Below, piece after piece: positions 13,550-63,046 of a DNA stretch of 64,000 bases. The stretch is from Nitrospirota bacterium (GTDB lineage Bacteria > Nitrospirota > UBA9217): the NCBI GenBank assembly GCA_963790205.1, contig CAWBNQ010000003.1:256001-320000 (forward strand). Direction: 5' to 3'. Both the position numbers and the translations under genes were made by a program. The notes below the pieces were generated by a model. The model made no database searches and was not told the DNA's origin. It saw only the letters and a list, made by a program, of their open reading frames with translations. Position 1 is the first letter of the stretch, and every line of letters starts with the position of its first letter.

Positions 13550-13578
13550 TTGACTTCCCCCGCGCTCCTTGGTACTAT
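13550..13578 (+). promoter_or_regulatory. Sigma70-type promoter, probably leaderless, for the T2SS operon
   Basis: TTGACT-N17-TACTAT, 7 nt before ATG 13586, no Shine-Dalgarno (SD). Confidence 0.65.
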
Positions 13579-13585
13579 ACGGGCA

Positions 13586-14512
13586 ATGTTAGGTTTTTTT
13601 GCGAGAAAGCCCGGCTTGGGCATCGAGATTACATCTTCAGCAGTGAGACTGGCCGCGATAGCGGGCAGCGCAGCGAACGCCTCCGTGCTCTTCACGAAGA
13701 CGGCGGATCTGCCGGCAGGCATCGTGAATGAGAACTACGCTGCGCCGAACGTATGTGAGGTAGACGCCTTAGTCAATGTGCTGCGTGAGAGCTTGTCCGC
13801 CGTTTCGGCCCTTCATTTACGACGGGCGGCCTTAAGTCTGCCCGACGGCGTGTTCCGCGTTCAAACCGTCGAGTTCGACGAGCTGCCGGACAAGGCCATG
13901 GACCGGGAGCGGCTTATCCGCTGGCGGCTCGAGAAGAGCGCTTACGATATTGCCGACACCGTCCTCCGGTATCAGGTCCTGAAGCGGAAGGGCGGAGGTT
14001 TTACCGTCCTGGTCTGCATGGCCAAGCAGGCCGTCATATCGCAATATGAGGCGGTCCTCATCGGGCTGGGGCTCGAACCTTGGTCCGTGGGGCTTTCTTC
14101 CTTTCATACCCTGAATTTCTACTCCTCCTACCTGTCGAAGGCATCTTCGGTGGCGGCGATGGCCCAGGTGTCCGAAGATTCCTTTACAACCATTATTTGG
14201 GAAGCGGGCGGCGCGTGGTTTTACCGCTTCAAGGAAGTGAAGCGGGGGCGCGCGGACGAGGTCAAAACAAGGCTTATGCGCGAGATCGATGACTCCCTCC
14301 ATTTCTATAGGCACATGGACCGGACGCAACAGTCCGGGCTGGAGCGCCTCTATCTTACGGGAGATGCCGCGGTGTCTCATGGCCTGTCAGCGGGGCTCAA
14401 GGCCATGACGTCGCTCGACATAGAGGTCCTGTCGCCTTCCGCCGTCATTCCCTCCCTCAACGGCGCGGGCCCGGAACTGGCGGCGGCGCTGGGTGCGGGG
14501 TGCGGCTTATGA
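13586..14512 (+). CDS. pilM: PilM/GspL-like actin-fold assembly protein (PulM-type)
   Basis: LGIEIT N-terminus, ALSLPD, LYLTG, LAAALGA C-terminus; first gene of an M-N-O-P-Q run. Confidence 0.75.
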   Translation: MLGFFARKPGLGIEITSSAVRLAAIAGSAANASVLFTKTADLPAGIVNENYAAPNVCEVDALVNVLRESLSAVSALHLRRAALSLPDGVFRVQTVEFDELPDKAMDRERLIRWRLEKSAYDIADTVLRYQVLKRKGGGFTVLVCMAKQAVISQYEAVLIGLGLEPWSVGLSSFHTLNFYSSYLSKASSVAAMAQVSEDSFTTIIWEAGGAWFYRFKEVKRGRADEVKTRLMREIDDSLHFYRHMDRTQQSGLERLYLTGDAAVSHGLSAGLKAMTSLDIEVLSPSAVIPSLNGAGPELAAALGAGCGL

Positions 14513-15051
14513 TCCCGGTCAATTTTGCGAGCAGGAATTACCGGCTTATTGCGCGGATACAGACCGTTTTGCTTGCGGCGATCGTCGTCCTCTGCGTGGT
14601 CATGGCCGGGATGATCTGGACCGCTGCTTCCCTGCGCAAGAACATTTCCGTCATGGACCTGAAGCTGAAGGAGGTTGAGGCGGCTGACGAGAACCTGCGG
14701 CCGGCGTTCAGGGAACGCGAACAGCTCGTGAAAGACCTCTCCCTCATGTCCGGCGTCCTGGCGTCGAGAAGGTTTTCCTGGACGCGGCTGCTGACGCGCA
14801 TCGAGTCGGTCGTTCCCCTCGGGATGGAGCTCAAGCGTGTGGCATTCAACCCCGGGGACCATACCTTGACGCTTGAGGGCACGACGCAGTCACCGGAGTC
14901 GCTTCGCAATCTGGTCGTCGGGCTGGAAAAGTCCTCATCATTTAAAGACCCGTTTCTTAAACGCCAGTCTATTGAAAAGGGGAATAATTCATTCGATGTG
15001 GTCGCTGTCTATCGCGAAGATGCGGGCCCCGCTGTGGCTCAAGGAAAATAA
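14509..15051 (+). CDS. pilN: PilN-domain protein
   Basis: IPVNFAS start, one TM, coiled coil, FSWTRLLTRIESVVP. Confidence 0.8.
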   Translation: MIPVNFASRNYRLIARIQTVLLAAIVVLCVVMAGMIWTAASLRKNISVMDLKLKEVEAADENLRPAFREREQLVKDLSLMSGVLASRRFSWTRLLTRIESVVPLGMELKRVAFNPGDHTLTLEGTTQSPESLRNLVVGLEKSSSFKDPFLKRQSIEKGNNSFDVVAVYREDAGPAVAQGK

Positions 15052-15541
15052 CAGGAAGCTGATGACGGCGGCGCTTGCGTGCGTCGGGCTCGTCTGCGCG
15101 GACCTGCTTCTGTACGGCGTGCTGATCGCCCCTTCGGCCGCGCGGCTTAAAACGGCGGAGACAAGGTCCGCCGAGCTCAGGCGGAGGCATGCCGAGGCAG
15201 TCCTGTTCCAGAAGCAGAGGCCGTTGTTCGCGGGGATCATGGCCGGGATACCCGCTCAGAAGGACATGCCGATCCTGGTGAAAGATCTCGTACAAAAGGC
15301 CCGGCGGCTGAACCTGTCCGTGGCCTCGGTAAAGTACGATATGCCGAAGCGCGCCGGCGGGGAATTCACCCTGCTTACGTTTTCCTTTCCGGCCGAGGGC
15401 AGGTATCAGGACATCAAGCGGTTCATCTATGACGTGGAGACCGCCGACCGCCTTGTCGGGATCCAGGACCTGAAGCTGGATGGCGAAAAGGGCCGGGTGA
15501 AGCTGGAGATGAAACTCGTCACGTATGTAAAGGGGCAATAA
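15020..15541 (+). CDS. pilO: PilO/GspM-like protein
   Basis: One TM, coiled coil, GRYQDIKRFIYDVE. Confidence 0.8.
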   Translation: MRAPLWLKENNRKLMTAALACVGLVCADLLLYGVLIAPSAARLKTAETRSAELRRRHAEAVLFQKQRPLFAGIMAGIPAQKDMPILVKDLVQKARRLNLSVASVKYDMPKRAGGEFTLLTFSFPAEGRYQDIKRFIYDVETADRLVGIQDLKLDGEKGRVKLEMKLVTYVKGQ

Positions 15542-15549
15542 GACTGGCG

Positions 15550-16275
15550 ATGACGTTCACGCAGGAGCGACAAAAAAAAATCCTTATCGCGCTGACCGCA
15601 GTTCTCGCGCTTCTCATAACCTACCGCATCCTCACCGCGGAGAAGCCGAAAACCGCGCCGCTCACGTATAAGCGCGGCGCGGTCGCCAGTTCGCCGGTGC
15701 GGCAGGGGGTGTTGTCCCAGGCAGGAGGCGCAGACCCCTTGAATGTCTTCCTGGAGCGGCGTGCGGAAAATTTCCCGGGCGTGGCCCGCGACATTTTCAG
15801 GATGGAGAACCCGGCGCCCAGGCGGAAGCCGGCAGCGTCACAGCCGGCTCCTCCCGTGCACGTAAAAACACCGGAGGAGATTGCCGCCGAAGCGGCTCTG
15901 AGCGCTGCGGAGGCGGCGCGGGCGGACCTGTCGAAATTCCGTTTCCTCGGCTATCTGACCAGCAAGGACAACACGGTGTTTCTGTCCAAGGACGGTGAAC
16001 TCTTCATCGTCAAGAGCGGGGACCAGGTGCTCAGGAACTACAAGGTAATAGAGACGGGCAAGGACCATGTCGTTTTGCTCGATACGATTACTCGCGTCGA
16101 AGTGCGCATTTATCTGTCCGGCGCTGCTCCACAATACCAGCAGCCGCAACCGCAACAGGCGCCGCCGCTGTCGCCGCAACAGGTGCAGCCGCAACCGCAG
16201 CAGTCGCCGCAGCCCGTACCTCAACCTCAGCAACAGCGGCCGCCGATCTACAGGAAACGACCGGCGTCCGGCTAG
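15550..16275 (+). CDS. PulP/GspC-like T2SS component with Gln/Pro-rich tail
   Basis: N-terminal TM, RDIF motif, FRFLGYL...VFLSKDGELFIVKSGD; lies between pilO and the secretin. Confidence 0.65.
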   Translation: MTFTQERQKKILIALTAVLALLITYRILTAEKPKTAPLTYKRGAVASSPVRQGVLSQAGGADPLNVFLERRAENFPGVARDIFRMENPAPRRKPAASQPAPPVHVKTPEEIAAEAALSAAEAARADLSKFRFLGYLTSKDNTVFLSKDGELFIVKSGDQVLRNYKVIETGKDHVVLLDTITRVEVRIYLSGAAPQYQQPQPQQAPPLSPQQVQPQPQQSPQPVPQPQQQRPPIYRKRPASG

Positions 16276-16395
16276 AGATAAAGCAGCGGTACGGGGAGAT
16301 GCGTCGTACTATTATTGGCCAGGTCATCGGAAAACCCGGATTTCCCGTTCAGTCCGGCCCGGTTTGAATAAACAGTACCCATGAGGAGGTAGAGA

Positions 16396-18755
16396 ATGAA
16401 AAGGAGTATGCTCGGGCTTGCGGCGTTTCTGCTGCTCGCGGCGCTCGCGGGCTGCGCGGGTTCCCAGGCGTTCCAGCGCGGCGAGCGTTATGCCGATCGG
16501 GGAGAATGGGACCTTGCCGTGAAGGAATACCGGGAAGCCAACACGCGCTCGCCCCAGGACATCGAATACCGTTCGGCGCTGCTCAGGGCACAGGAGACCG
16601 CGGCGAACGAGCACTATAAAAGGGCGCGCAAGTTTCTGAAGGAGCGGAAGTTCGACCAGTCCATCGAGGAGCTTCAGCAGGCCCTGTATCTCAACCCTTC
16701 GAATGCGGCCATCCAGAGCACGCTCAAGTCCGTGCTCGATATAAAGCAGGCGGAGGAGCACTACCGCGCATCGCTCACGTTCCAGGAGCTCGGACGGTTG
16801 AGCGACGCCATCAGCGAGCTGAACCAGGCGGTGGAGCTTGATCCGGAAAACGTCAAATACCTCGATTCCCTCGACAAGCTGCGGAAAAAGAAGGCCGAAA
16901 CCGAGCCGGAAGACGCGCTCACCCTGGCCTCGGACAAGCCCATTACCCTGAATTTCAAGAACACGAACATCAAAGACGTCTTCGATTTCCTGTCCAAGCT
17001 CTCGGGCATCAACATCCTGTTCGACGAAGAAGTGAAGGCGCAGCCGGTGACCGTGTTCGTCAAGGACGTGTCGTTCCAGTACGCGCTCAACCTGCTCCTC
17101 TCCACGAACAAGCTCTTCATGAAGAAGGTCAGCGCCGACACCATCATCATCGTCCCCAAGACCAAGGGAAAGCTGGACCAGTACCAGGACCTGATGGTCA
17201 AGACCTTCTATATCAACAACGCGAAGGCGAAAGAGGTCGTCAACCTGGTCCGGTCCATGCTCGATGTCAAAAAGATATACGTGAACGAGATCCAGAACTC
17301 CATCACTGTGCGCGATACGCCTGAGAAAATAAAACTGGTGGAGAAAGTGATCGCCGCGAACGACCTCAAGGAAGCGGAGGTCATTCTCGACGTCGAGATC
17401 CTCGAGCTGGCAAGGACCAACTCGCTGAATGTCGGCTGGAACTTTACGCCCGGGCTGACCGCCGGAGCAACGGTCCAGAGCATTACTCCCCCGACCGGCG
17501 TTTCTATCCCCGCGGGCAGTATCTCCCTGAACGAGCTCAGAAACCTGTCGAGGGACAATATTTTTGTAACCCTCCCCGGTATTGTGATGAACCTGATCAA
17601 ACAGGATTCCGATGCCCAGACCCTTGCCAACCCGCGGGTCCGCGTTCTGAACAACAAACAGGCGAAGTTCCATATCGGAGACAAAATTCCGATCCAGACC
17701 TCGACCATCCAGTCCACCGCGACGGCCGCCGTCACGTCCACCTTCGAGTATAAGGACGTCGGCATCAAGCTCAACATCGAACCGACCATCCACCTCAACA
17801 ACACGGTGACGCTCAAGATGGCGATGGAAGTCAGCACCCTCGGCCAGCCGCTGGATTTCGGGAACGGGCAGAAACAGTACAAGTTCGGGACCCGGAACAC
17901 GGAGACGATCGTAAACCTGCGGGACGGAGAGACCGTGATCATCGGGGGACTGATCAAGGATGAGGACACGGAAGAGCAAGATCAAGGTTCCCGATCCTCG
18001 GCGATATACCTCTAGTGGGCAGGCTGTTCTCCTCGACGGACGACGAAACGATCAAGACGGACATCCTCATGTCGATCACGCCGAACATCGTGCGCAATAT
18101 GGAGCTGCCGGACAAGGACACGCAGGCGTTCTGGTCGGGGACGGAAGAGGCCTACGCCACCACGCCGCTCTTCGTCACCGCCGGCAAGAGCACCAAGCCG
18201 TCGAGCAGGGCGCCTGACAAGACCGAGGTGCTCGAATCCATGGCGAAGTCCGGGGCGGCTGCTCCGGCGGCCGGGTTAGCGGCGAAGACGCTGTCGGCCC
18301 CGACGACCACGGCGACAGGACAGCCTTCCGGCGCGCCATCCGTCGCGGCTTTGGAGCTCGAACCTTCGGAAGGAACGGTCCAGGTCGGACAGGAAATGAG
18401 GGTGGAACTGACCGCCGGCGGGATCAAGGACCTCTACGGGGGCATTATTACGCTGAGCTACGATCCCAAGGTATTGGATTTCAAGACCGCGAGCGAGGGA
18501 ACGTTCCTGAGGAAGGACGGACAACCGACCTCGTTCCTTTTTTCGAACAACATCAATGCAGGGACCGTGGACATTTACATAACGCGCATCGGCGGGCGAG
18601 GCGGCGTAGGCGGCTCAGGAAGCCTGTGTACCCTCGTATTCCAGGGCAAATCGGGCGGAACAAGCGAGATAACCATGAAGAGCGTGAAACTGATGAATAT
18701 GGCACGGGAACAGATCGGGAGCGAAAGCAAAAAGGCGAAAGTGGTTGTGAAGTAG
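16396..18755 (+). CDS. gspD: Secretin (PulQ/GspD-like) lipoprotein with N-terminal TPRs and C-terminal cohesin-like domain; two +1 frameshifts at about 17965-17992
   Basis: Lipobox LAGC, TPRs, ITLNFKNT, LANPRVRV, YKDVGIKLNIEP, GETVIIGGLI; the motif KVPILGDIPLVGRLF is split across three frames; cohesin-like ITLSYDPKVL. Confidence 0.85.
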
Positions 18756-18879
18756 GACGGCGGCAGGAGCGCCGTATTGAATATTTGAAAACTGGAAAGC
18801 GCAAAGGGAAAAAACATCATCCAGAGGACGCTCTGCAATCTGAAATTTCCAATTTTCATTTTCCAGTTCATTCTAGGCT

Positions 18880-19365
18880 ATGAGGGAAAAGGGTTTCACG
18901 CTTATAGAGCTGCTGGTAGTCATCGCTATCATGGCCATCCTGGCTTCGGCGGCAATGCCCCTTTCGCGCATGACCGTCAAACGGGCCAGGGAAATCGAGC
19001 TGCGCGCCAATCTCAGGACCTTGCGCACCGCGATCGACGCGTTCAAGGATGACTGTGAGAATAAAAAACTTTCGACCTTTGAAGGCTACTGTAAAACCGA
19101 GCAGAACAACTATCCGGATTCCCTCGAACAGTTGACGGAACCGCTGAAAATGAGCGGAGCCGTGGACAAGACCCGGAAATATCTTCGGAGGATCCCCCGG
19201 GACCCCATGACCGAGCTTGATTCACCGGGCAACCCGAACAACTGGGGGCTGCGTTCCTACAGCGATGATCCGGATTCCACCCAGTGGGGCGGCGATGATG
19301 TGTTCGATGTCTATTCGAAGAGCGACAAGACGGCCCTTGACGGCTCAAAGTACAGTACCTGGTAA
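18880..19365 (+). CDS. gspG: Type II secretion pseudopilin (PulG-type)
   Basis: Class III signal KG|FTLIELLVVIAI; YLRRIPRDP. Confidence 0.88.
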   Translation: MREKGFTLIELLVVIAIMAILASAAMPLSRMTVKRAREIELRANLRTLRTAIDAFKDDCENKKLSTFEGYCKTEQNNYPDSLEQLTEPLKMSGAVDKTRKYLRRIPRDPMTELDSPGNPNNWGLRSYSDDPDSTQWGGDDVFDVYSKSDKTALDGSKYSTW

Positions 19366-19398
19366 TGAGTAAGAATGAATAAGAATGAAACGCATAAT

Positions 19399-19794
19399 AT
19401 GAAAAGTTCCGGCGAGCGCGGCTTCACGCTCATCGAGCTCATGGTCGTACTTGCGATCATCGGTATCCTCGTTACGATCGCCCAACCGAACCTGAAACGG
19501 TCCATCACCAGGGCCCGTGAGGCCGTGCTCAAGGAAGACCTGTTCCAGATGCGCGATGCCATCGATCAATATTACACGGACAACGGCAAGTATCCCGCGA
19601 CCCTCAAGGACCTGGTCAACACGCAGGAGGGGACCAAGAGCTATCTTCGGGACGTGCCCCGGGACCCGTTCACCGGCGCTGATGACTGGATCACGGTCGC
19701 CGCGCCCGAAGGCGGTGAAGAGGACGGGGTGTTCGACGTACACAGCGCCAGCCCCCTGATTGCCACGGACGGCACGGCGTACAATACGTGGTGA
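19399..19794 (+). CDS. Type II secretion pseudopilin (OxpG-type); alternative start at 19375
   Basis: RG|FTLIELMVVLAI, AREAVLKEDL, AIDQYY, YLRDVPRDP. Confidence 0.88.
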   Translation: MKSSGERGFTLIELMVVLAIIGILVTIAQPNLKRSITRAREAVLKEDLFQMRDAIDQYYTDNGKYPATLKDLVNTQEGTKSYLRDVPRDPFTGADDWITVAAPEGGEEDGVFDVHSASPLIATDGTAYNTW

Positions 19795-19845
19795 GGTTTT
19801 CCGTTCGCCGCCATGATTCCCCGCGGTTAAGGAAGCAAGAACGTG

Positions 19846-19875
19846 TTGACTTACTCCGTCTCATTCTGATATTAT
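19846..19875 (+). promoter_or_regulatory. Sigma70-type extended -10 promoter, probably leaderless, for gspF-gspE
   Basis: TTGACT-N18-TATTAT with TG extension, 6 nt before ATG 19882, no SD. Confidence 0.6.
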
Positions 19876-19881
19876 CCATCC

Positions 19882-21072
19882 ATGCCCCATTTTACCTACA
19901 AGGCTGTTCGGGAAGACGGGACCACCGTAACTGACGAGGCCACGGCAGCTGACGTTGCCGAGCTCCGGCAGGAGCTGGAGGCCAGAGGCTACCTGGTTTT
20001 GGGCCTCGAAAAGAAAAAAACCTCCTTATGGAGCGGCCGCGGCAGCGCAAAGGACTTCCTCATCTTCAACCAGGAATTCGCAACGCTCGTCAAGGCAGGA
20101 CTGCCGATCCTCCAGGCGATCGAACTGCTGCACAAGCGGACGGAAAAGCCGGGGTTTCGGAACGCCCTCGAGAGCATCATCCATGATATCAAGGGGGGAG
20201 CAGCGCTCTCGGACGCCATGACCCGGCATCCTGCATACTTTTCGCCCCTCTACACGGCCACCGTGCGGGCGGGCGAGAAGAGCGGCGCCCTTGTCGATGT
20301 GCTCAGACGCTTCACCCTCTATCAGAAAAAAATGATCACGGTGGTGGGCAAACTGAAAATGGCGCTCGCCTACCCGGTCTTTCTGGTCGTCTCTCTCTTC
20401 GCGGTGCTCCTGCTCTTTTTCCTCTTCATCATACCGAACTTCACGCAGATGTACAGCGAGCAGGGCGGGAAGCTTCCGCTTTTGACGAGGCTTCTCGTTT
20501 CGTTTACCGCGGCGCTTACCCACTATGCGCCGTTTGTCTTCGTCAGCCTTCTCGTTGCGGGCGCCGGCTTATACTCGTGGCAGAAGACCGAGACCGGCAG
20601 GAAGACGGTCGATGGCTTGAAGCTCAAAATACCGCTCGTCCGGTCGCTCATCATTCAGTACGTCCTCGCGCAGCTCACCCGGACGCTTTCTACCGTGCTC
20701 CGGGGCGGCATTCCGCTGGTGCAGGCGCTCGACACCACCGCCGGCGTGATCAGCAACACGGTCGTCGCCGGGAGATTGTCGGAAGCCAGGGAACTCGTGA
20801 CCCAGGGCGTGAGCCTTGCCGATGCCTTCGAACGCACCCGGCTGGCGCCGGACATGACGGTCCGGATGATCGCGGTCGGGGAATCGTCCGGCGATCTTCC
20901 GCAGATGCTCGAGGATGTCGCGGATTTCTACGATCAGGAGGTCGAGAACAGGCTGACCGCCATCACGACGCTGATCGAGCCGGTGCTCATGCTGTGCATG
21001 GGGCTTGTGATGGCGGTGATCGTGGTTGCTCTCTACCTGCCGATATTCGAAATGGGGGCGCAGATACGATGA
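19882..21072 (+). CDS. gspF: Type II secretion inner-membrane platform protein F
   Basis: MPHFTYKA, LVKAGLP, AGEKSG, VGESSG, LIEP, LYLPIF. Confidence 0.93.
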   Translation: MPHFTYKAVREDGTTVTDEATAADVAELRQELEARGYLVLGLEKKKTSLWSGRGSAKDFLIFNQEFATLVKAGLPILQAIELLHKRTEKPGFRNALESIIHDIKGGAALSDAMTRHPAYFSPLYTATVRAGEKSGALVDVLRRFTLYQKKMITVVGKLKMALAYPVFLVVSLFAVLLLFFLFIIPNFTQMYSEQGGKLPLLTRLLVSFTAALTHYAPFVFVSLLVAGAGLYSWQKTETGRKTVDGLKLKIPLVRSLIIQYVLAQLTRTLSTVLRGGIPLVQALDTTAGVISNTVVAGRLSEARELVTQGVSLADAFERTRLAPDMTVRMIAVGESSGDLPQMLEDVADFYDQEVENRLTAITTLIEPVLMLCMGLVMAVIVVALYLPIFEMGAQIR

Positions 21073-22793
21073 TGTCATTCCGGAGAAGACGCCTGGGAGA
21101 GATCCTTTCGGCCAAGGGGCTCGTGACCGAGGAGCAGATCGCCGACATCCTGTCGAGAACCGAGGGGAGCCGGATGCGGATCGGAGAACTTCTCATGACA
21201 GAGGGGCTGGTCACCGAGGAGTCCCTCGCGAAGGCGCTGGCGGAACAGCGGGACCTGCGTTACGTCGACCTCCTGGACTTCAGCGTCAACGCCAAATTCT
21301 TCACAACCATCCCCGTCAATCTGATGCAGCGATACCAGTTCGTTCCCATGGAAGACGCCGGGGACATTTTGGTCGTCGCCATGACCGACCCGAGCAATAT
21401 TCCCTCCATCGACGAGCTCGAAATGGTCCTGGGCCGTCAACTTGAGATCTGCGTGAGCACGCCCTCGGCCATCCAGGCGGTCCTGAAGCGGAGCGGCGGT
21501 TCGGAACAGGCGCTCCATGCGGTCTCCGAAGACTTTATGTTCCAAATCATCAAGGACAAGGAAGACGGCCAGGGCGAGGAAGTGCTTTCCCTCGAGAGCA
21601 TCGACAAGGACGAAAGCCCCATCATCAAGCTTATCCACACCACGGTGTTCGACGCCATCCAACGGAGGGCCTCCGACATCCACATCGAGGTCACGGACAG
21701 GAACGTTTTGATCAAGTACCGCATCGACGGCGTGCTCTACCCCGCAGTTGAGCCGATCGACATCAGGTTCCACAGCGCCATCGTGTCGCGCATCAAGGTC
21801 ATGAGCGACCTCGACATCGCCGAGCGGCGCGTGCCCCAGGACGGCAGGTTCAAGCTCAGGACCGGCGGGAAGACCATCGATTTCCGTGTTTCTATTCTGC
21901 CCTCCGCCTTCGGCGAGGACGTGGTCATCCGCATCCTCGACAAGGAATCCATCACCGCCGGGGTGAACTCGCTCAAGCTCGACAGCCTCGGTTTCGACGA
22001 AAACGATCTCAAGCGGTTCCGCAAGAGCATCCAGGAACCCTATGGCATGGTCCTCGTGACCGGCCCCACGGGGAGCGGCAAGACCACGACCCTCTACGCC
22101 GCCATGACGGAGATCAATACCGGCGAGGACAAGTTCATCACCATCGAGGACCCTGTCGAGTACCAGCTCCGGGGCGTAACGCAGATCCCGGTGAATGAAA
22201 AGAAAGGGCTCACCTTCGCGCGCGGCTTGCGCTCGATCCTCCGGCATGACCCGGACAAGATCATGGTCGGCGAAATCCGCGACGCCGAGACGGGCCAGAT
22301 CGCGGTCCAGTCCGCGCTCACCGGGCACCTGGTCTTCACCACGGTGCATGCGAACAACGCCTTCGATGTGCTCGGCCGCTTCCTGAACATGGGCATCGAA
22401 CCCTACAACTTCGTGTCATCGCTCAACTGCATCCTCGCCCAGCGGCTCGTCCGCATACTGTGCCCCCGGTGCAAAAAACCCATTACCCTGTCGAGAAAGG
22501 AACTCGAAGACTCTGCAATGGATTACGAAAAGTACGGAAATCACCGGTTCTATGAGGCCGGGGGGTGCAAGGACTGCAATTTTACGGGTTTCCGGGGCAG
22601 GAAGGCCATAACGGAATTTCTCGATCTTTCCGACCGCGTCCGGGAAATGATCCTCGAAAGGCGGCCGTCGTCGGAGCTCCGGAAGGCCGCCATGACCGAG
22701 GGCATGACCACCCTCCGCCAGTCCGCGCTTGCGAAGGTCTATGCCGGCGATACGACCGTGAAGGAGATCAACCGGGTAACGTTTATTGAATAA
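21069..22793 (+). CDS. gspE: Type II secretion / PilB-type ATPase E
   Basis: RLGEIL N-terminus, ASDIHIE, GPTGSGKTTT Walker A, TIEDPVEY, LRHDPD, LTGHLV, tetracysteine motif. Confidence 0.95.
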   Translation: MMSFRRRRLGEILSAKGLVTEEQIADILSRTEGSRMRIGELLMTEGLVTEESLAKALAEQRDLRYVDLLDFSVNAKFFTTIPVNLMQRYQFVPMEDAGDILVVAMTDPSNIPSIDELEMVLGRQLEICVSTPSAIQAVLKRSGGSEQALHAVSEDFMFQIIKDKEDGQGEEVLSLESIDKDESPIIKLIHTTVFDAIQRRASDIHIEVTDRNVLIKYRIDGVLYPAVEPIDIRFHSAIVSRIKVMSDLDIAERRVPQDGRFKLRTGGKTIDFRVSILPSAFGEDVVIRILDKESITAGVNSLKLDSLGFDENDLKRFRKSIQEPYGMVLVTGPTGSGKTTTLYAAMTEINTGEDKFITIEDPVEYQLRGVTQIPVNEKKGLTFARGLRSILRHDPDKIMVGEIRDAETGQIAVQSALTGHLVFTTVHANNAFDVLGRFLNMGIEPYNFVSSLNCILAQRLVRILCPRCKKPITLSRKELEDSAMDYEKYGNHRFYEAGGCKDCNFTGFRGRKAITEFLDLSDRVREMILERRPSSELRKAAMTEGMTTLRQSALAKVYAGDTTVKEINRVTFIE

Positions 22794-25146: not shown

Positions 25147-25162
25147 TGGCACTTCTATTGCA
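25147..25162 (+). promoter_or_regulatory. Sigma54 (-24/-12) promoter
   Basis: TGGCACTTCTATTGCA, full match to TGGCAC-N5-TTGCA. Confidence 0.8.
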
Positions 25163-25188
25163 TAATTTATATACAGTATAATGTTAAG

Positions 25189-26682: not shown

Positions 26683-26703
26683 CGCGGGTGTCGCGTGTGC
26701 AGG

Positions 26704-48241: not shown

Positions 48242-48242
48242 T

Positions 48243-55517: not shown

Positions 55518-57986
55518 ATGAAAAATAAATTATTTCTGTATGTGGCAGTCCTTGTTGTTTTTACCTTCTCACTCATGTATTCCATGGATGCCGAGGCGGT
55601 GAAGGGACAGAGATACTTCGGGGATGGAGCAACGCCCGGTCCGGCCGGAGGATGGTCGTATACCAGCGCCGTTGACACCAACTGTTTTGTTTGTCACCAA
55701 CTGAACGGCACCGTTCCCGCGCCCGATAAAACAAGCTACCTGATGACAGGCCACAAGAATGTTTTGAGGAAAGCCACGCTTTTTTCCTTTTGGAACGGGC
55801 CTGACGGGCTGCCCTATGATACGGACTCGACAGGTCGCGCCATTGTCTGGAACACACTGGGACCGATATCGCTCGGCACCTCTACCACTCATCCTCCTTT
55901 GCTTGACGGTTCATGCTCGTTATCGGGGTATCCGAATCAATCCGCCTGTACATCCGCCGGAGGCACATGGACATCCTACAATGGCGGTCTCGGCAACTCG
56001 CTCTTTTACATTTATGACGGTTGGATAAATACAACAGCGGGAGCGGGGGCATACAATGACCCGACTACAAGCGTCGCCGCGCCCGGCTCTGTTTTCAATG
56101 GCGGCTCGTACTCCTGCGCGCGCTGCCATACGACCGGCATGACCCTCGACACCTCGGTCACGACGACGCGTTCTCCTGAAAAAACCTACCCAGGCATCAA
56201 CACGTATGTGAACTTCGACCCTGACGGCAACGGGCCGGCCACAACGGTCTCCTGGGCAACCGGTTTCACCACCGGTCAGGCCATGGACGGCGTTCAGTGC
56301 GAACGCTGCCATGACGCGACGCATCATTTTACCACCGGACCAACGGTTCCCACAGGGGCGGCCGCCACCGCGTTATGCGTTCAATGCCACAGACAGGAGC
56401 ATATGGTGACCTATACCAGCGGCGGAATAGGCGCGAATATTCATCCCACGCCGTTCTCCGATAACACCGTCACTCTTCCGGTTTCCGAACCGGCGTATCC
56501 GCTTCCCGCGATCGAGGTCGGCCGGCCCGACGGCAACTACGCGCCGGAATTTTTCGGATACTCGACCGGCATGGAGTTCCTGAACAGCGTTCATGGCCAG
56601 TATACGGGAAATTTTCAACAGATAAATAATCCGGCAAACTACAACAGCAGTTTTTCGTATGGGTCCTGCGATTTGGACGGATTTTCGGTATACGCTGATC
56701 AGCCCAGTTGTGAAGCAGCGGTAGGCTCGTGGACCGACGCCAGAGGGTGCATATTTAACCAGACGAATTGTACGAATGCCGGCGGCAACTGGACCGCATT
56801 GCAGGGCGGATGCACCGCCTGCCACGATGTTCACAACAGCCTCTTTGTGGCTTCCCAGAAAGCAGCGGCAATAAGAACGACATGCCAGGATTGCCATGTC
56901 AACAACGCCACGACCGAGGCGACCATCAGCACCGTTCCGACGGTTACGGTCGTTAACCATCCGAAGGACGCGGGCACGCCGTTCGATACTACCAGGTATG
57001 ACAATGCGTGCGTGGTCTGCCATATGGCCTCGCAGGCAGTGAAGAACGGCGATCGGGTTTCCATGCCGGCGCATGTCTGGAGGATCAACACGAATGCGAA
57101 TTACAACACGTTCCCGACCATGGCCCAGTTCTACGGCGGGTCCTGCAGCGTGCATACCGGCGCGGTCCAGAATGCTCCCAGCACGCCGGTCGTCTACCTG
57201 TCCGACACCTCTTCGGCCAATTGTACGGCCGCTTCCGGCGCATGGACCGCTGCGATAAAGACCGGAACCGCTCAAACCGCGCCTGACGGTTCTTACTCGA
57301 ACGCGGTCTGGGTCGACCTCGACCTCGCGTGCGGCCAGTGCCACGGCGGCTCGATCAGCACCGCAACGCACAACAACGCGCCGTATTTCACCAAGGCGGG
57401 GCTTGCCTCGGCTGCGGCCGTCATGCACTCAACCACCCCGCTGAGCCAGCCGACGGCCAGCACTCCAGTAGTGTCAAAAGGCACGGTTACCGTGACCGCC
57501 TGGACGGTAAGCTTCGCCGACGCGTCAACCTCCGGGGACGGGACCACGCCCAACGTAAATGTGAACTGGGGTGACGGAAACTATGACCTCGGAGTTGCCG
57601 GCGGCACCTTCACCCATACGTACGCGAGCACGCGGGCGAGAAGCTACACCATTAATCATGTGGCCATCAGCTCCGTGAATCCGAGACTGACCTCCACGGC
57701 AGATAGGTTCTCGGTCAACGTGCCCCAGCGCTACACGATATCGGGCATCGTCACGACCAGCACGGGCACCACGCCTATGGCGAACGCGTATGTGTTCCTG
57801 AAGGCGGGCACCCGCACGGTGCAGTACAAGAAGACGGTCTCGAACGGTCTCTTTACCTTCCCGAGCGTTCTTCCGGGCGACTACACGGTCCATGTGTACA
57901 AGTTCGGGACCACCTTCGGCGCCGACGCCGTTATCAGCGGCCTGAGCTCGGATCAGTCGCTGACCATCAGCTCGATAACACCGTAA
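55518..57986 (+). CDS. Secreted octaheme cytochrome c, paralog 3 (short N-terminus; alternative start 55512)
   Basis: Signal peptide; 8 CxxCH (CFVCH, CARCH, CERCH, CVQCH, CTACH, CQDCH, CVVCH, CGQCH); C-terminal third nearly identical to paralogs 1 and 2. Confidence 0.92.
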   Translation: MKNKLFLYVAVLVVFTFSLMYSMDAEAVKGQRYFGDGATPGPAGGWSYTSAVDTNCFVCHQLNGTVPAPDKTSYLMTGHKNVLRKATLFSFWNGPDGLPYDTDSTGRAIVWNTLGPISLGTSTTHPPLLDGSCSLSGYPNQSACTSAGGTWTSYNGGLGNSLFYIYDGWINTTAGAGAYNDPTTSVAAPGSVFNGGSYSCARCHTTGMTLDTSVTTTRSPEKTYPGINTYVNFDPDGNGPATTVSWATGFTTGQAMDGVQCERCHDATHHFTTGPTVPTGAAATALCVQCHRQEHMVTYTSGGIGANIHPTPFSDNTVTLPVSEPAYPLPAIEVGRPDGNYAPEFFGYSTGMEFLNSVHGQYTGNFQQINNPANYNSSFSYGSCDLDGFSVYADQPSCEAAVGSWTDARGCIFNQTNCTNAGGNWTALQGGCTACHDVHNSLFVASQKAAAIRTTCQDCHVNNATTEATISTVPTVTVVNHPKDAGTPFDTTRYDNACVVCHMASQAVKNGDRVSMPAHVWRINTNANYNTFPTMAQFYGGSCSVHTGAVQNAPSTPVVYLSDTSSANCTAASGAWTAAIKTGTAQTAPDGSYSNAVWVDLDLACGQCHGGSISTATHNNAPYFTKAGLASAAAVMHSTTPLSQPTASTPVVSKGTVTVTAWTVSFADASTSGDGTTPNVNVNWGDGNYDLGVAGGTFTHTYASTRARSYTINHVAISSVNPRLTSTADRFSVNVPQRYTISGIVTTSTGTTPMANAYVFLKAGTRTVQYKKTVSNGLFTFPSVLPGDYTVHVYKFGTTFGADAVISGLSSDQSLTISSITP

Positions 57987-58250: not shown

Positions 58251-58280
58251 GAAGGCCCCTGGCTGACTGAATCGACGGTA

Positions 58281-59978
58281 TCAATTCTTTAATAGATTCC
58301 GCAATACCTTGCATCCGACTTCATTTCCCAAAGCGCACCCTTTCTGCAGGTCCGGCAGGGCAAGCGCATTCTTGCCGGTTTTCAGATAGAGATAGGCGCG
58401 ATTGATGTATGCTTCCGAATTGTTTTTATTTAATTCGGTTGCTTTGTTAAAGTCCTCGAATGCCTTGTCATCACGGTTCTGCAGAAAATAAGCCACCCCC
58501 CTGTTATTATAGGCCATATCAAACCCCGGGCTGATGGAAATTGCACTACTGAAATCGTCTATGGCCGGGCCTAATTGATTTTTTTCGCCGTAGGCAAGCC
58601 CTCGATTATAAAATGCAAGAGGGACCTCCTGACGCCCCGTTTCAATAAGGTAACTCCATAACGAGATCGAATTTTTCCAAAGCCGTATCTGACTGACGGA
58701 GGCATACGACAAAAAAAGAACGATGAGGCAGCACGCAACGATAAAAAAGGATCTCATCACGACTCCCCCTCGCCTCGGGTCAAACGCTTTTCTGAAAAAA
58801 AACGTCAGTCCGATGCCGGCAATCAACAAATAGCCCAAAGTCGGCAAATAAGTATACCGGTCCGCCATTGACTGCCCTCCGACTTGTATAATGCCCAGGA
58901 CGGGAAGCAAGGTCACGACATAATACATCCATACTGCGAGCCATAGTTTCTGCACCTTTGCGACGGCCAGACAAGCGACGGTAACTCCGGCAACGAGCGC
59001 AACGAAAAAAATATATTGTAAGGATAAAAGAGAAACATCCCTGGGATAGGGATAAAAGGGAAGCAAGTCAACAGGTACAAGGACTTTGAAGAAATAAACG
59101 ATAAGAGCTTTGGCGCCCACAACCGCCCGCACTGCCAGGGTCGTATGTTCGAGAGGAACAATCGCATGGCCTGAACGTTGAGCAAGGACCGTTATCACGG
59201 AAGAAAGCAGGCTCAGGAGAAAAAAGGGGATCTTCTCCGTGAAAACAACTTTGAATGCCCGGGCCGAGGGGACCCTTCCGGCCGGGTGCCAATCCAGGAT
59301 TAAAAGAACCGCGGGAAGGGTGACCGCCATCGGTTTGCTTAATAAGGCAAGGACAAAAAATCCAAAGGCAAGAAGATACTGCTTATCGAAGAACCCGTAT
59401 GCCGGCTTCCTCCGGCCCGGTCCATTCCCGGCGGCCCTGTATTTCATATACGACAGGATGCTGAGCAGAAAAAAAAGGGCGCACAGCAGGTCTTTCCTCT
59501 CAGAAACCCATGCCACCGATTCGACATGGAGGGGATGGATCCCGAAAAGCAGGCCTGTTGTCGCCCCGGTCATTAATTTTGTTCTTTCATTCCAAAAAGG
59601 GTCCGGAGTTCCCTGCCGTCCTGTTGATTCTTCAAAAACCTCCACCAGCTTCACCACAAGAAGAACGACCACGAACGTGTTGATTGCATGAATGATATTA
59701 TTGGTCAGGTGGTGCCCGAAAGGATCAAGCCCCCATATCGCATAGTCGATTGCATGAGAGAGCCACGTAAGCGGATGCCAGTTGGCGGCATGAAAATCGA
59801 AAAATGCCCATCGGAACAGCTGCAGGTTGAATGTCCGAACAGGGAGGTTCTCATAAACATAGTCGTTGTCATCCCAGTTAATGAATCCGTTTCGGAGGGC
59901 GGGCACATAGACCAGGAAAGCAAATAGCGCGATCGAGCCCGCTACAAGGTATTTCTTATTAGTTGGCAGGTTATTCAT
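58281..59978 (-). CDS. TMTC-like GT-C glycosyltransferase with C-terminal TPRs
   Basis: NGFINWDDNDYVYEN, WHPLTWLS, HPLHVESVAWVSERKD, LLSKPMA, MADRYTYLP; many TMs; 3 TPRs. Confidence 0.85.
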   Translation of the reverse strand: MNNLPTNKKYLVAGSIALFAFLVYVPALRNGFINWDDNDYVYENLPVRTFNLQLFRWAFFDFHAANWHPLTWLSHAIDYAIWGLDPFGHHLTNNIIHAINTFVVVLLVVKLVEVFEESTGRQGTPDPFWNERTKLMTGATTGLLFGIHPLHVESVAWVSERKDLLCALFFLLSILSYMKYRAAGNGPGRRKPAYGFFDKQYLLAFGFFVLALLSKPMAVTLPAVLLILDWHPAGRVPSARAFKVVFTEKIPFFLLSLLSSVITVLAQRSGHAIVPLEHTTLAVRAVVGAKALIVYFFKVLVPVDLLPFYPYPRDVSLLSLQYIFFVALVAGVTVACLAVAKVQKLWLAVWMYYVVTLLPVLGIIQVGGQSMADRYTYLPTLGYLLIAGIGLTFFFRKAFDPRRGGVVMRSFFIVACCLIVLFLSYASVSQIRLWKNSISLWSYLIETGRQEVPLAFYNRGLAYGEKNQLGPAIDDFSSAISISPGFDMAYNNRGVAYFLQNRDDKAFEDFNKATELNKNNSEAYINRAYLYLKTGKNALALPDLQKGCALGNEVGCKVLRNLLKN

Positions 59979-60270: not shown

Positions 60271-60561
60271 TCACACAAACTTCATCTGGACCCGGAATTT
60301 ATTCGACGATTCGACGATCCACATCACAACGCCCACTTTAGACGCGTTCCCATGGCCGAGCCGGACCCTGTCCCCGGGTTGCAACGGAACATGGGTCAGC
60401 ATACCGGTCCCGCCGCTGTCCAGGTCGATCAGGGTGCCGGTATTCCTCGGTCCCCTGAGGTGCTCATCGCCGAAGTCGGCATATTTATCGACGACAATGA
60501 ACTCGACTTCATCGGCATGCTGTTCGTTCAAAGGCGAGTTTTCCGTGTCCGCGAACGTCAT
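60271..60561 (-). CDS. Small degenerate PilZ-like protein
   Basis: IDLDSGGTGM..LQPGDRV..GVVMW..RVQMKF; lacks RxxxR; overlaps the upstream cytochrome stop by 4 nt. Confidence 0.55.
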   Translation of the reverse strand: MTFADTENSPLNEQHADEVEFIVVDKYADFGDEHLRGPRNTGTLIDLDSGGTGMLTHVPLQPGDRVRLGHGNASKVGVVMWIVESSNKFRVQMKFV

Positions 60562-61883
60562 TTCTTCTTTGCCTTGCCTTTTTCCGGCGCTGCTTCCTTG
60601 CCCGGTGTTTTTCTGTCATAGGAGACTTTCTGATGACATCCCGGAGCGCAACTGCCGCCTGTGTCGGTCTTGACGAAATTCAAGGGCAAATTCCATTTGC
60701 CGAAGGGGACGCTGTTTGCGATCAGCTTGGGGTTCTCGCTGGCATGCACCATATGGCAGACCTTGCAGCGTTTGCCGCGGTCCTTCCGGTTGACATGAAG
60801 ATAATGCAGGTTCCGGTCGCCGTCCCGGAACCCCGTCGCGTAGGACGTGGTGGGAAATCTGAGCATGTCGCGGTTATGGCAGCTGAAGCAAAGCTGGAAT
60901 GAATTGTCATTGTAGGACACATAGAAGTCGGTCGAGTAGGGTTTGATCAGGTTCTTGTCGTACGGCGTCCCGTGCGGGTCGTGGCAGGCCGTGCACGACC
61001 CGTCCCTGATGGGGCCGTGGAGCACGGTCTGGTTCTTTTTGATGAGGTCCTTGTGGCAGTCGAGGCAAAGGTCCTTGCCGGCCTTCGGCAGGAGCTTCGG
61101 CGCGTCACTCGCATGGGGGTTGTGGCAGGTCGCACAGCCCCGCTCCGACTGCACCGGCGCGTGGACGCGCTTCGCAGTCTTGATCTTGTCCTGGATGTCC
61201 GGATGGCATTGAAAGCAGAGCCCGGCGCCTTCCGCGGCAAAAAACTTTTTAAAGGGGGAGCCGTGCGGGTTGTGACACGAGGTGCACCCCATTTCAAGCG
61301 CCGGGTGCACGTATTTCTTCTTGATGGCGGCCTCCATATCGCCGTGACACATAAAGCAAAGGTCAGGGGTGGGCTTGACCAGCAGGCGCTCGTTGTTCGA
61401 TTCGTGCGGGCTGTGGCAGAAGGTGCAGTCGCCCGTGGCCGCGGGTCCGTGGGCATACTTGAAGCCGATCTTGTCGGGATGGCACGAGGTGCAGAGGTCT
61501 TTCAGGGGCTGCACGAGGAGCTTCGGCTGTGCCGAGTCGTGGGGATTATGGCAGGTCGTGCACATCCCGTCTTTTACGGGCGGATGTATGTCTTTCATGG
61601 CGCCGAACTGCGTGTGACACTGATAACACAATCCGGGGACCTCCTGGGTGAGCTTGAAGGTCTTTGTCTTTTTCTGGGGGTGTGGCGTGGCGATCGACTG
61701 GTGGCACGTATCGCAGGGGTCCGTCGCCGGGTGGATATATTTGGTTTTCAACAGGTCCTGATGGCATTTTGCGGTCACGCAGCCCTGTTCAGCGGGCGCG
61801 GCAGGTGCGACGACCCCGTATGCAAAGAGAAGGGTCAGGGAAAAAAGGACCAAGAGGATCGGCAGAACAGCTATTTTTTTCAT
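60558..61883 (-). CDS. Periplasmic multiheme cytochrome c, 13 CxxCH plus CX4CH and CX3CH (up to 15 hemes)
   Basis: Signal peptide; tandem HxP..CxxCHxPH.S...LL....LCxxCH paired repeats; CVTAKCH and CAPGCH at the ends. Confidence 0.92.
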   Translation of the reverse strand: MKKIAVLPILLVLFSLTLLFAYGVVAPAAPAEQGCVTAKCHQDLLKTKYIHPATDPCDTCHQSIATPHPQKKTKTFKLTQEVPGLCYQCHTQFGAMKDIHPPVKDGMCTTCHNPHDSAQPKLLVQPLKDLCTSCHPDKIGFKYAHGPAATGDCTFCHSPHESNNERLLVKPTPDLCFMCHGDMEAAIKKKYVHPALEMGCTSCHNPHGSPFKKFFAAEGAGLCFQCHPDIQDKIKTAKRVHAPVQSERGCATCHNPHASDAPKLLPKAGKDLCLDCHKDLIKKNQTVLHGPIRDGSCTACHDPHGTPYDKNLIKPYSTDFYVSYNDNSFQLCFSCHNRDMLRFPTTSYATGFRDGDRNLHYLHVNRKDRGKRCKVCHMVHASENPKLIANSVPFGKWNLPLNFVKTDTGGSCAPGCHQKVSYDRKTPGKEAAPEKGKAKKK

Positions 61884-62357
61884 AGGCCACGATTTTATCA
61901 CTTTACGCCTCCATAACAACTAGCAAAAATTAGACCATAAGTCTGACGGGTTGAGGATTTACGCCTTTAAACGGGGGAAAACCGTCATGAAGCTCAAAAA
62001 TGTCGCCAGCCGTGGTTTTCAACCCGCCGAAGCTAATAATATTCCGTCTTTCCAGTCAGTTGACCGCTTCCTTCGTTCGTTGAGACGCCAATCATGTTTA
62101 TTTACCCAAAACAGCGGTCCGACTCGTTTCAAACGAAAAATACGGGAGGAGCAAATTCAAACCCGAGTCGGGTAAAAAATAAGCAGGCATCAGGTGATAT
62201 GACGCCACAGCAGAGTTATATCACTCCGGGGAGATAATTTCCATTCTTGATCCAGCTCTAACCTTATCGAGACATGGTCTTTGGAGCGGAAAGACGGACG
62301 CGTGCTCTCTCTCCCGAGTCGCACGCATTGGCTGGCACTCGTGATTTCCGTAATTTG

Positions 62358-63011
62358 TTATTCCGCGGGTGCCGGCGGTGGCGGCGGGGGGGGTGGCTTA
62401 TTGGGCGCCCATGTCCCCCATGGTGTTATTCTAGACTGGTCGGATGTCGCTCCAGACTGGCCGGATATCGCTCCAGACTGGCCGGGTGTCGCTCCAGACT
62501 GGCCGGCTGTCGCTCCTGGCTGACCGGGTATCGCTCCAGGCTGGCCAAGCGCTAGTTTATACACAAACTGCCATTCGCTGTACTTGGTCTTTCCTTCAAA
62601 ATCCTGGTCCTGCTCGGGAAAGTTTGCCTGCTTGAGCGGCTCTTTCTCGCTGGGGCTATATACGCCGATGATACGGTTCGTGGCGGGGTCGCGCATCTCC
62701 GTGAAGTCTTTTCCGCTGATCGGGTCTTTGTATTTCTGCCGCAGGTAGTGTGCCGAGGCGGTCTTTGGGTCCTTGACCAGATCGTCGATGCTTTGCGGGA
62801 AACCGGAATTGGCCTTCACGTATCGCGCGATAGCCGTACGGTATTGGTCGCCGCGGAAGAGTAACTCCTTCTCCTTTTCCCGGAGCGAGATATTCGACCA
62901 GTACCTGGTCGCGGCGCCCAGTGATATCCCGATGATGATGATCACGACGAGAAGGGCGAGGTAGGCGAAACCCCGGCTGCCCCAAAAGGGCTTGTACGCG
63001 AAAAGAGGCAT
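62358..63011 (-). CDS. Orphan type II secretion pseudopilin with repeat and poly-Pro tail
   Basis: RG|FAYLALLVVIII, REKEKELLFRG, YLRQKYKDP, YSEWQF. Confidence 0.8.
   Translation of the reverse strand: MPLFAYKPFWGSRGFAYLALLVVIIIIGISLGAATRYWSNISLREKEKELLFRGDQYRTAIARYVKANSGFPQSIDDLVKDPKTASAHYLRQKYKDPISGKDFTEMRDPATNRIIGVYSPSEKEPLKQANFPEQDQDFEGKTKYSEWQFVYKLALGQPGAIPGQPGATAGQSGATPGQSGAISGQSGATSDQSRITPWGTWAPNKPPPPPPPPAPAE
62432..62546 (-). repeat. 21-bp tandem repeat (about 5.5 units) encoding GQ(P/S)GA(I/T)x
   Basis: GQPGAIP GQPGATA GQSGATP GQSGAIS GQSGATS DQS. Confidence 0.85.
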
Positions 63012-63016
63012 GAGGG

Positions 63017-63046
63017 ATAATAACAGATTTCCGGCGGCGAAGTCAA
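63017..63046 (-). promoter_or_regulatory. Sigma70-type extended -10 promoter, probably leaderless, for the orphan pseudopilin
   Basis: Minus strand TTGACT-N18-TATTAT with TG extension, 5 nt before ATG 63011. Confidence 0.6.

Follow-up and report, generated by a model that had tools for sequence, protein, structure and literature searches.

An omcE-type nanowire cluster with a candidate filament end-piece and an unnamed octaheme cytochrome family in a Nitrospirota genome

Filaments of the tetraheme cytochrome OmcE are known from Geobacter sulfurreducens and Desulfuromonas soudanensis (7TFS, 9YUQ), and PMC13712944 reports that an omcE cluster comprises, at its smallest, the OmcE gene together with genes for a large beta-barrel, two beta-propeller lipoproteins and two multiheme cytochromes; genes for glycosyltransferases, tetratricopeptide repeat (TPR) proteins and regulators often come next, and its examples include Nitrospirota. 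The same 2026 structure paper treats the start, the stop and the acceptor contact of cytochrome nanowires as an open question and states that OmcE operons contain no tip candidate; its figures or supplements may already show the protein called c12 below. OcwA (Thermincola potens, 6I5B) and OmhA (Carboxydothermus ferrireducens, 6QVM) are described as surface reductases of solids and shuttles, a very poorly represented type known from Gram-positive thermophiles, and PMC9250108 places OcwA, MccA, OmhA, ONR and NrfA in one clade. Here we analyzed a window of 64,000 nucleotides from a Nitrospirota genome (assembly GCA_963790205.1, contig CAWBNQ010000003.1, positions 256,001 to 320,000), in which an initial annotation had read about 50 kb as one island holding a whole path for extracellular electron transfer. 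The listed genes are present but do not form one unit, and caution is needed in reading them as a single island. We regard as moderately probable the combined reading of an OmcE filament cluster with c12 as its end-piece and octaheme cytochromes at the surface, both under sigma54 control, with a type II secretion system (T2SS) as an incidental neighbor. The core cluster has already been described; here it occurs in a new host, together with an unnamed octaheme family and a candidate filament end-piece.

In a PDB sequence search the tetraheme protein of the window matched the OmcE filaments 9YUQ (E 7.8e-19) and 7TFS (E 6.7e-17), and it has four CxxCH motifs plus four non-motif histidines, the latter invariant in 23 homologues. 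The gene order omcE-NHL-pentaheme-barrel-(SurA)-NHL-c12 was repeated across Nitrospirota and Binatia loci; the pentaheme protein and c12 are the further multiheme cytochromes of the cluster, and a lipobox was detected by pattern in the first NHL protein and an N-terminal cysteine by eye in the second. Judged by its gene content, the region at 32.1-41.4 kb is the omcE cluster already described, with the minimal set of PMC13712944. The filament operon proposed initially was upheld by this gene set and by the homology to 7TFS and 9YUQ, and by that homology the cluster likely builds an extracellular OmcE filament. The 668-amino acid (aa) protein in the conserved barrel slot ends in phenylalanine, its amphipathic strands outnumber those of the window cytochromes, and its nearest named Atlas rows were porin clusters (0.89, a lead only). 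The MtrB models PF11854 and TIGR03509 gave no match in this protein, which by sequence lies outside the MtrB family. A repeat of 170-300 bp between the SurA and barrel genes (36273-36575) recurs at four further sites of the genome with 82-90% identity. The host genome (G000) also encodes a second, stand-alone OmcE paralogue (G000:C8:219894-220742, 43-46% identity), near which a genome-wide search found no NHL or barrel match.

The first 185 residues of c12 aligned with OmcE (7TFS, E 1.4e-24; hhalign probability 100, E 6.9e-50), and OmcS was not among the matches of the PDB sequence search with c12. At least 6330 of 7999 candidates scored were c12 homologues; in a set of 120, all four OmcE histidine motifs were retained in 119 and an extra histidine after heme 4 in 116. 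Together with the following CxxCHxxH, this histidine recreates the pair of motifs at the N-terminus of the OmcE subunit, and c12 can be read as an OmcE subunit with the next one fused to it. The predicted complex of OmcE with c12 scored 0.80 (best of three controls, 0.00), passing a mark that was reached by 116 of 157 solved pairs and 2 of 215 mismatched pairs. The runs shared at least 87% of contacts with a partner predicted local distance difference test score (pLDDT) of at least 88, and the heme-4 end of OmcE was set against the heme-1 face of c12. This prediction shows a compatible interface, not proof of capping or of binding in the cell, but its geometry is the one that an end-piece would require. 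Because the OmcE histidines are kept, the fused "next subunit" continues the protein and only the heme-1 face is free, c12 would be a candidate end-piece of the OmcE filament, encoded inside the operon. One Geobacteraceae-type genome (L093) likewise has a fused c12 within a complete omcE cluster, which makes the idea testable in laboratory strains. In eight other Geobacteraceae-type loci (L090-L092, L094-L098) the homologue was split over two genes, one for a tetraheme and one with 7 CxxCH, located between an NHL gene and a T2SS; the split locus that was annotated lies after tig-clpX-lon and contains no barrel gene.

Divergent from omcE, the window carries three giant octaheme cytochromes. A word search yielded 315 octaheme relatives among 7996 candidates, and a core profile retrieved 742 clusters at E<=0.001, 273 of them at <=1e-30. 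By label, the 35 genome loci belong to Nitrospirota (21), Binatia (8), Verrucomicrobiia (2), delta proteobacterium (2), Geobacteraceae (1) and Margulisiibacteriota (1), and homologues of the window octaheme were also present in records labelled Nitrospira and other Nitrospirota. omcE stood beside the octaheme gene in 12 of these loci (8 Nitrospirota, 3 Binatia, 1 other), or in 8 of 21 when only loci with 5 kb or more on each side were considered; in the host family, five of six octaheme carriers have the omcE marker, four of them within 12 kb on the same contig. Eleven loci that lack omcE were annotated, of which three (L014, L026, L030) have mtrA, mtrB and the octaheme gene in a row and two have an MtrA-like gene plus a downstream porin-like gene; the rest have no conduit. 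An open-access text search found no description of this family: PMC8805035 reports, in its accessible part, merely a periplasmic octaheme beside mtrCAB, and the family is not described in the accessible parts of 10.1101/2025.05.29.656830 and PMC12954529. The novelty claimed for the combination of genes holds only in part: PMC13712944 already covers the core cluster, its glycosylation genes and its occurrence in Nitrospirota.

The full-length octaheme model (pLDDT 78.1) ends in PKD and CnaB/carboxypeptidase-regulatory domains, and since this immunoglobulin (Ig)-like tail dominated the fold searches, the core was then folded alone (pLDDT 73.6, predicted template modeling score 0.77). Ten of 48,161 chains reached Z>=2, with OcwA (Z 7.5, root-mean-square deviation 4.7, 313 residues aligned), MccA (6.9) and OmhA (6.5) ahead of the next match (3.8). 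The fold check suggested in the initial annotation gave these three as the best matches of the core, with every score under the tool's mark of 8. Foldseek listed OcwA (top row, E 0.45) and MccA alone, neither significant, whereas a profile of compact members found OmhA at 6.1e-5 across one long stretch and ONR and NrfA at ~1e-4 to 8e-4. OmcZ and OmcS were not listed in the PDB sequence or fold searches, which leaves remote kinship possible, and with NCBIfam, run on 33 core sequences, no family rose above the cut-off for the window member, generic multiheme models being the only matches. Six non-motif histidines are conserved in the family, and the heme 3-4 linker carries histidine or methionine in 162 of the 163 proteins passing the motif filter. 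Since this makes seven candidate ligands (six histidines and the linker) for eight hemes, one heme site would be open, and by analogy this would be heme 2. The core has eight motifs and no conserved His-His pair, and hence neither nine hemes nor His-His open sites; no cysteine outside the motifs is conserved, and the last motif is a plain CxxCH, unlike the cysteine pair and CX15CH of MccA. In the models one helix follows the last heme and then two Ig domains, without a three-helix bundle. At best, the family works like OcwA, OmhA and MccA, and it is a member of neither group because the ninth heme, the His-His pockets and the helix bundle of OcwA and the cysteines of MccA are missing.

The octahemes have a signal peptide and no lipobox, and homologues carry variable insertions rich in disulfides and as many as 32 hemes. 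Because of the signal peptide, the PKD/CnaB tails and the MtrC-like gene position, we infer export to and display at the surface, and the octahemes are likely surface-exposed terminal cytochromes, as had been proposed and as the OcwA/OmhA-like core also suggests. Three further loci (L052, L054, L055; G007:C161, G018:C86, G004:C77) encode 7-8-heme cytochromes of 700-1200 aa in the same slot divergent from omcE; these have no octaheme-core match and share the Ig tail in part, and they represent a second unnamed family. In another genome an expanded cluster (L046-L048, G005:C12:585-645 kb) encodes octaheme-core proteins of ~1670 and ~1750 aa with more than 30 hemes, along with additional cytochromes of 6-21 hemes and three SurA proteins.

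The three octahemes had been considered a triplicated family, which oversimplifies their relationship. In a quick tree built from 62 of 120 octaheme proteins passing the motif filter, copies 1 and 2 (methionine linker) clustered and copy 3 (histidine linker) fell in another clade. Copies 1 and 2 have 1650 bp in common at 97.5% identity, SurA included, and are recent paralogues, whereas copy 3 shares 31-33% identity with them in its middle and 81% in its last part; this suggests, at the level of sequence, one duplication plus recombination of octaheme 3' ends. The SurA remnant reported behind copy 3 is real. Between copies 2 and 3, a 266-aa signal-peptide protein with a weak match to Phenol_MetA_deg, a transporter barrel family, is encoded at 54341-55141 and is not present in related loci.

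The strict sigma54 consensus occurred 19 times in the genome and three times in the window, i.e. before omcE, before octaheme 3 and before an insertion sequence (IS). When one mismatch was allowed, the motif preceded omcE in 13 of 19 loci (window included); it was absent from all 61 windows upstream of seven other gene types and present in 12 of 1491 background windows. When two mismatches were allowed, it lay before octaheme genes in 15 of 28 windows (a few counted twice) and occurred in 56 of 1491 background windows. These counts are descriptive only, since related loci are not independent. Together with the activator orthologues that flank the cluster in other genomes, they agree with the regulation postulated initially, and the cytochrome cluster and the octahemes are probably under sigma54 control.

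The T2SS is of the Pul/Oxp type, with ATPase, GspF, PilM/N/O-like platform, secretin and N-methyl pseudopilins, and in Geobacter the pseudopilin OxpG is needed for Fe(III) oxide reduction. To interpret the assembly we used contigs from two peat runs (X1, X2), ~99% identical to the window and maybe its assembly source or close strains. The secretin gene is frameshifted in the window; the X1 and X2 contigs, without the bases at 17969 and 17993, stay in frame and dsrA is likewise split in the host assembly, so that the frameshift is likely an assembly error. The T2SS set and two N-methyl pseudopilins were identified as annotated, but the third pseudopilin lies 40 kb from the operon on the opposite strand and has no Pfam match. 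A second pseudopilin copy (77%) was found at G000:C10:58995-59432, with T2SS genes absent within 20 kb. No RNA data set was listed as containing the T2SS stretch. Among 63 other genomes of the host family, 46 carried a GspE orthologue, 10 the omcE marker and 6 the octaheme, and 37 of the 46 genomes with GspE lacked the omcE marker. In the nine genomes having both, GspE and the marker lay on different contigs (eight) or 1.58 Mb apart (G083), and in none were they together, which is where the proposed synteny failed. In all eight relatives fetched, the module from pilM to the second pseudopilin lacked gspF and gspE as well as omcE-cluster genes. Because the third pseudopilin, far off and inverted here, directly follows gspF-gspE in three of four relatives (11 kb after in the fourth), the gene order suggests that ~22.8-63.1 kb is inverted in the window; a search of the segment ends revealed no inverted repeat. 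This T2SS occurred in none of the 35 octaheme loci, and no sigma54 motif was found before pilM or gspE. As far as gene content and order indicate, the T2SS is probably a family-core machine brought adjacent by rearrangement and not part of the cytochrome cluster. A dedicated, co-inherited export role is not plausible; a shared one is, and the T2SS may still export octahemes by that route.

The host is a member of Nitrospirota, and not a Geobacter as had been left open, because loci of genomes from the same family carry Nitrospirota or Nitrospiria labels. Its genome consists of 4.34 Mb in 14 contigs (98% completeness) and holds 39 open reading frames with at least three CxxCH motifs as well as a 16S gene. 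Six-frame translation of the window gave seven cytochrome genes with CxxCH counts of 4, 5, 11 (+1 CX3CH), 8, 8, 8 and 13 (+CX4CH, +CX3CH), bearing out the annotated number. Pfam and NCBIfam recovered the two NHL proteins, three SurA/PPIase genes, T2SS set and sigma54 activator listed initially, and in addition the IS91-family element, the 1265-aa Ig-repeat protein, the histidine kinase and two response regulators. The layout is no misassembly, though X1 is possibly not independent of the assembly, because X1 spans the junctions between gspE and the sigma54 gene and from the TPR gene via c14 on to the third pseudopilin, with doubled read depth across the duplicated SurA. The NapC/NrfH-like 11-heme cytochrome and the c7 trihemes are encoded on contig C8, a DmsE-family decaheme and an MtrB-like gene on contig C1, and resB and the dsr genes elsewhere in the genome. 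Because the quinol-oxidising cytochrome, the c7 trihemes and the MtrA/MtrB-like conduit lie outside it, the window by its gene content does not hold the complete electron path.

Table 1. Features of the window (positions in nucleotides from its first letter).
Feature	Position	Strand	Basis or remark
OmcE-type tetraheme nanowire subunit	40612..41367	-	homology to solved filaments
NHL beta-propeller protein 2	39277..40440	-	NHL match; used as omcE-cluster marker
Pentaheme lipoprotein cytochrome	38737..39273	-	CxxCH count
Predicted outer-membrane beta-barrel, 668 aa, no named family	36626..38632	-	slot conserved
SurA/PPIase lipoprotein	35243..36256	-	Pfam/NCBIfam
NHL beta-propeller lipoprotein 1	33909..34949	-	NHL match
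c12, 12-heme cytochrome: N-terminal OmcE-like tetraheme domain + 8 hemes	32096..33916	-	sequence homology, complex prediction
sigma54 -24/-12 consensus, 209 bp before omcE	41561..41576	-	conserved in relatives
Octaheme 1, 1073 aa, Met-linker subfamily; OcwA/MccA/OmhA-like core, PKD + CnaB-like tail	42347..45568	+	
SurA-like lipoprotein after octaheme 1	45730..46473	+	
Membrane histidine kinase and two response regulators with ArsR-type helix-turn-helix	46814..49778	+	Pfam/NCBIfam
Octaheme 2, 1059 aa, Met-linker subfamily	50174..53353	+	
SurA-like lipoprotein, near-identical to 45730-46473	53515..54264	+	
Octaheme 3, 822 aa, compact His-linker subfamily	55518..57986	+	sigma54 consensus at 55426
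SurA remnant, 27 codons	58167..58247	+	67% to C-terminus of SurA copies
sigma54-dependent response regulator	23182..24630	+	orthologues (63-82%) flank omcE cluster in G005, G007, G018, G046
Pul/Oxp-type T2SS operon: PilM-, PilN-, PilO-like, GspC-like, secretin, two pseudopilins, GspF, GspE	13586..22793	+	Pfam/NCBIfam
Secretin with TPR + cohesin domains, two frames	16396..18755	+	extra bases 17969, 17993 vs X1/X2
Atypical third pseudopilin	62358..63011	-	orthologue after gspE in relatives
c14, periplasmic-type cytochrome, 13-15 hemes	60558..61883	-	recurrent cluster member
Multi-pass membrane protein, C-terminal TPRs; several genome paralogues	58281..59978	-	
sigma54 -24/-12 consensus, cut off from surface-protein gene by IS	25147..25162	+	
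IS91-family element, integrase + transposase	25175..27754	-	six more genome copies, 99.8-100%
Secreted 1265-aa protein, carboxypeptidase-regulatory/SdrD-B Ig repeats, no heme	27976..31773	+	partial homologues flank omcE cluster: G005, G046, G055

Among the remaining genes, the IS lies 13 bp past a perfect sigma54 consensus and splits it from the gene of the 1265-aa protein (25147-27976), and this gene may be silenced by the IS in the present strain; part of the IS had little or no read cover in X1 and X2, which is uninformative. The N-terminal 726 residues of the 1265-aa protein have an 88% copy at G000:C1:974105-976279 (97.7% at the DNA level over 1860 bp), and further relatives lie at G000:C3:540493-547554, suggesting shuffled C-terminal cargo domains on a common secreted scaffold. 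The multi-pass membrane protein had been labelled a TMTC-like glycosyltransferase on the basis of motifs: its TPRs were confirmed, but its membrane part had no Pfam or PDB match. A metagenome scan with c14 returned 11 loci, nine of them under 5 kb and too short for linkage. At 85-11171, glycosylation and exopolysaccharide genes were found (GT4, GT2, flippase, deacetylase, epimerase, TPR protein), which continue to the left of the window with more TPR membrane proteins; they fit the genes described near omcE clusters, but the T2SS lies between.

Several results weigh against the combined reading of a filament cluster with its end-piece, surface octahemes and an incidental T2SS. The 668-aa protein, taken from the beginning for a large beta-barrel, had no Pfam, NCBIfam or PDB match. 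The pass of the OmcE-c12 complex may stem from similarity to the solved OmcE filaments, as close cousins of true partners also pass. No omcE was in view in 23 of the 35 octaheme loci, several of them without a conduit gene nearby. For the octaheme core, Z-scores below 8 lie in the range where the tool warns of common arrangements, MtrA outscored OmhA with the profile of compact members (by way of short repeated motifs), and the single-sequence PDB search with octaheme 1 and profiles A2 and A4 returned short CxxCH matches and neither OcwA nor OmhA. As to the T2SS, its location on a contig other than that of omcE in eight of nine genomes does not strictly exclude closeness, and a 19-heme octaheme homologue follows a canonical T2SS operon in one locus (L015), so the link may be functional. 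Furthermore, we surveyed 15 genomes from the family of one genome labelled Geobacteraceae and fetched nine loci through their c12 match; in eight of these (eight genomes) an NHL gene, an OmcE-like tetraheme gene and a 7-CxxCH cytochrome gene are followed on one strand by gspF-gspE-pilM...gspD, with 58-60% GspE identity to the window. We take this arrangement to be GSU1788-GSU1776. An open-access text search did not find this Geobacter locus of T2SS and cytochromes described; in the accessible literature GSU1785-1787 are named merely as cytochromes and OxpG as a T2SS pseudopilin. A link between T2SS and cytochromes therefore has a precedent there, but not in the host family. These last observations also favor the original view of one island in which the T2SS is the dedicated exporter of the cytochromes, as do the joining, beside the cluster, of T2SS halves that are apart in relatives, the bridged junctions in X1 and the fact that flipping 22.8-63.1 kb gives gspE-pseudopilin-c14 on one strand. 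We nevertheless consider that view unlikely in light of the unequal family counts of GspE and marker, the separation in G083, the secretin modules devoid of omcE-cluster genes, the octaheme loci devoid of this T2SS, the missing sigma54 motifs before pilM and gspE, and a gene order unlike that of the Geobacter-type locus.

The octahemes could instead be NrfA/MccA-superfamily enzymes, located in the periplasm or loosely secreted, that act on sulfite, nitrite, hydroxylamine or polysulfide and are fed by the same cytochrome network. MccA does about as well as OcwA in the fold search and, like the octahemes, carries eight hemes (PMC9250108), one heme site would be open, the host has dsr genes, the octahemes lack a lipobox, and in Atlas, where all rows scored <0.9 against the core, a row named dissimilatory sulfite reductase reached 0.87 (a lead only). 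This explanation is nonetheless distinctly unlikely, since the MccA-type cysteines and last motif are not found, the tails are Ig-like and of the adhesin type, the genes are located after mtrA-mtrB and beside omcE, and variable disulfide-rich insertions and heme numbers reaching 32 in homologues suit surface proteins better than a housekeeping enzyme. A further alternative is inward electron flow, with Fe(II), reduced humics, metals or partner cells as donors to the cluster, or a role of c12 as a minor filament subunit or a periplasmic relay. Electron direction cannot be read from sequence, octaheme homologues occur in Nitrospira-labelled records and in Nitrospirota of unknown metabolism, c12 is split in Geobacteraceae-type loci, and GSU1786 and GSU0616 are periplasmic according to PMC11492766. 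However, the two solved OmcE filaments are from bacteria that reduce Fe(III) or electrodes, and OcwA and OmhA act as terminal reductases, which makes this alternative quite improbable.

Under the combined reading, the omcE cluster would build the OmcE filament with the help of the beta-barrel, NHL lipoproteins and SurA chaperones that it encodes, c12 would close one end of it, and the three octahemes would donate electrons at the surface to insoluble acceptors, with the electrons supplied from cytochromes encoded elsewhere in the genome. A bolder version, which we put forward tentatively and hold to be doubtful as a whole, is that OmcE filaments with the in-operon end-piece c12 are accompanied in Nitrospirota and Binatia by an unnamed Gram-negative branch of OcwA/OmhA-like proteins, Ig-tailed, sigma54-controlled and swappable between nanowire and MtrAB, whose His/Met variants would tune the potential to different peat acceptors. 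In either case c12 is a conserved and common candidate for the question of how nanowires start, stop and contact the acceptor. If true, surface reductases of the OcwA/OmhA type would extend to a sizeable family in Gram-negative bacteria of peat, soil and groundwater, and uncultured Nitrospirota and Binatia would become candidates for the reduction of Fe(III) or humic matter.

Compared with the omcE cluster of G. sulfurreducens and D. soudanensis (PMC13712944), the window has the same OmcE, two beta-propeller lipoproteins, predicted barrel and additional multihemes, as well as nearby glycosyltransferase, TPR and regulator genes. It differs in its Nitrospirota host and in lacking the purHDE-resB-ffh context (resB is ~560 kb away), in having three giant octahemes divergent from omcE, and in c12, a whole OmcE domain plus eight hemes, whereas that paper reports OmcE operons to lack a tip candidate. 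In the osc (omcS-companion) cluster a nanowire subunit is also accompanied by barrel, chaperone and propeller genes, but the window subunit is of the OmcE type. The genes beside omcS are reportedly of these three kinds, as Shen and colleagues are said to have described in 2025. The Pul/Oxp T2SS locus of Geobacter shares a related GspE and, in eight of nine loci, a split c12 homologue plus an NHL gene; it is codirectional and contiguous (NHL, tetraheme, 7-8-heme and triheme genes, then the T2SS) with no omcE operon in view, whereas in the window c12 is fused, belongs to the omcE operon and faces the T2SS over 9 kb that include the IS.

Among the best fold matches of the octaheme core are OcwA and OmhA, clade 3 of the NrfA/HAO superfamily, with which it shares a similar heme order, a putative open heme 2 and a proposed surface role. 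The window core has 8 hemes and theirs 9 or 11, the site of OcwA heme 5 is missing, and the family lacks conserved His-His pockets and the three-helix bundle; it has instead PKD/CnaB-like tails, large disulfide-rich insertions, Gram-negative hosts and His/Met linker variants. The octaheme copper-sulfite reductase MccA (4RKM) has its eight hemes at the same positions, but the window octahemes lack its conserved non-motif cysteines and CX15CH and have Ig tails and an electron-export context. A bioRxiv preprint (10.64898/2026.05.27.727921) describes the peat clusters EET1-4 with OmcE-like and "OwcA-like" cytochromes of 8-13 hemes in Acidobacteriota and Verrucomicrobiota; its main text mentions neither Nitrospir*, Binatia, octaheme nor PKD, and its supplements may overlap with the family described here. 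With respect to the MtrCAB conduit, finally, octaheme homologues occupy the position of the surface cytochrome after mtrA-mtrB in three loci, whereas the barrel of the window is not an MtrB.

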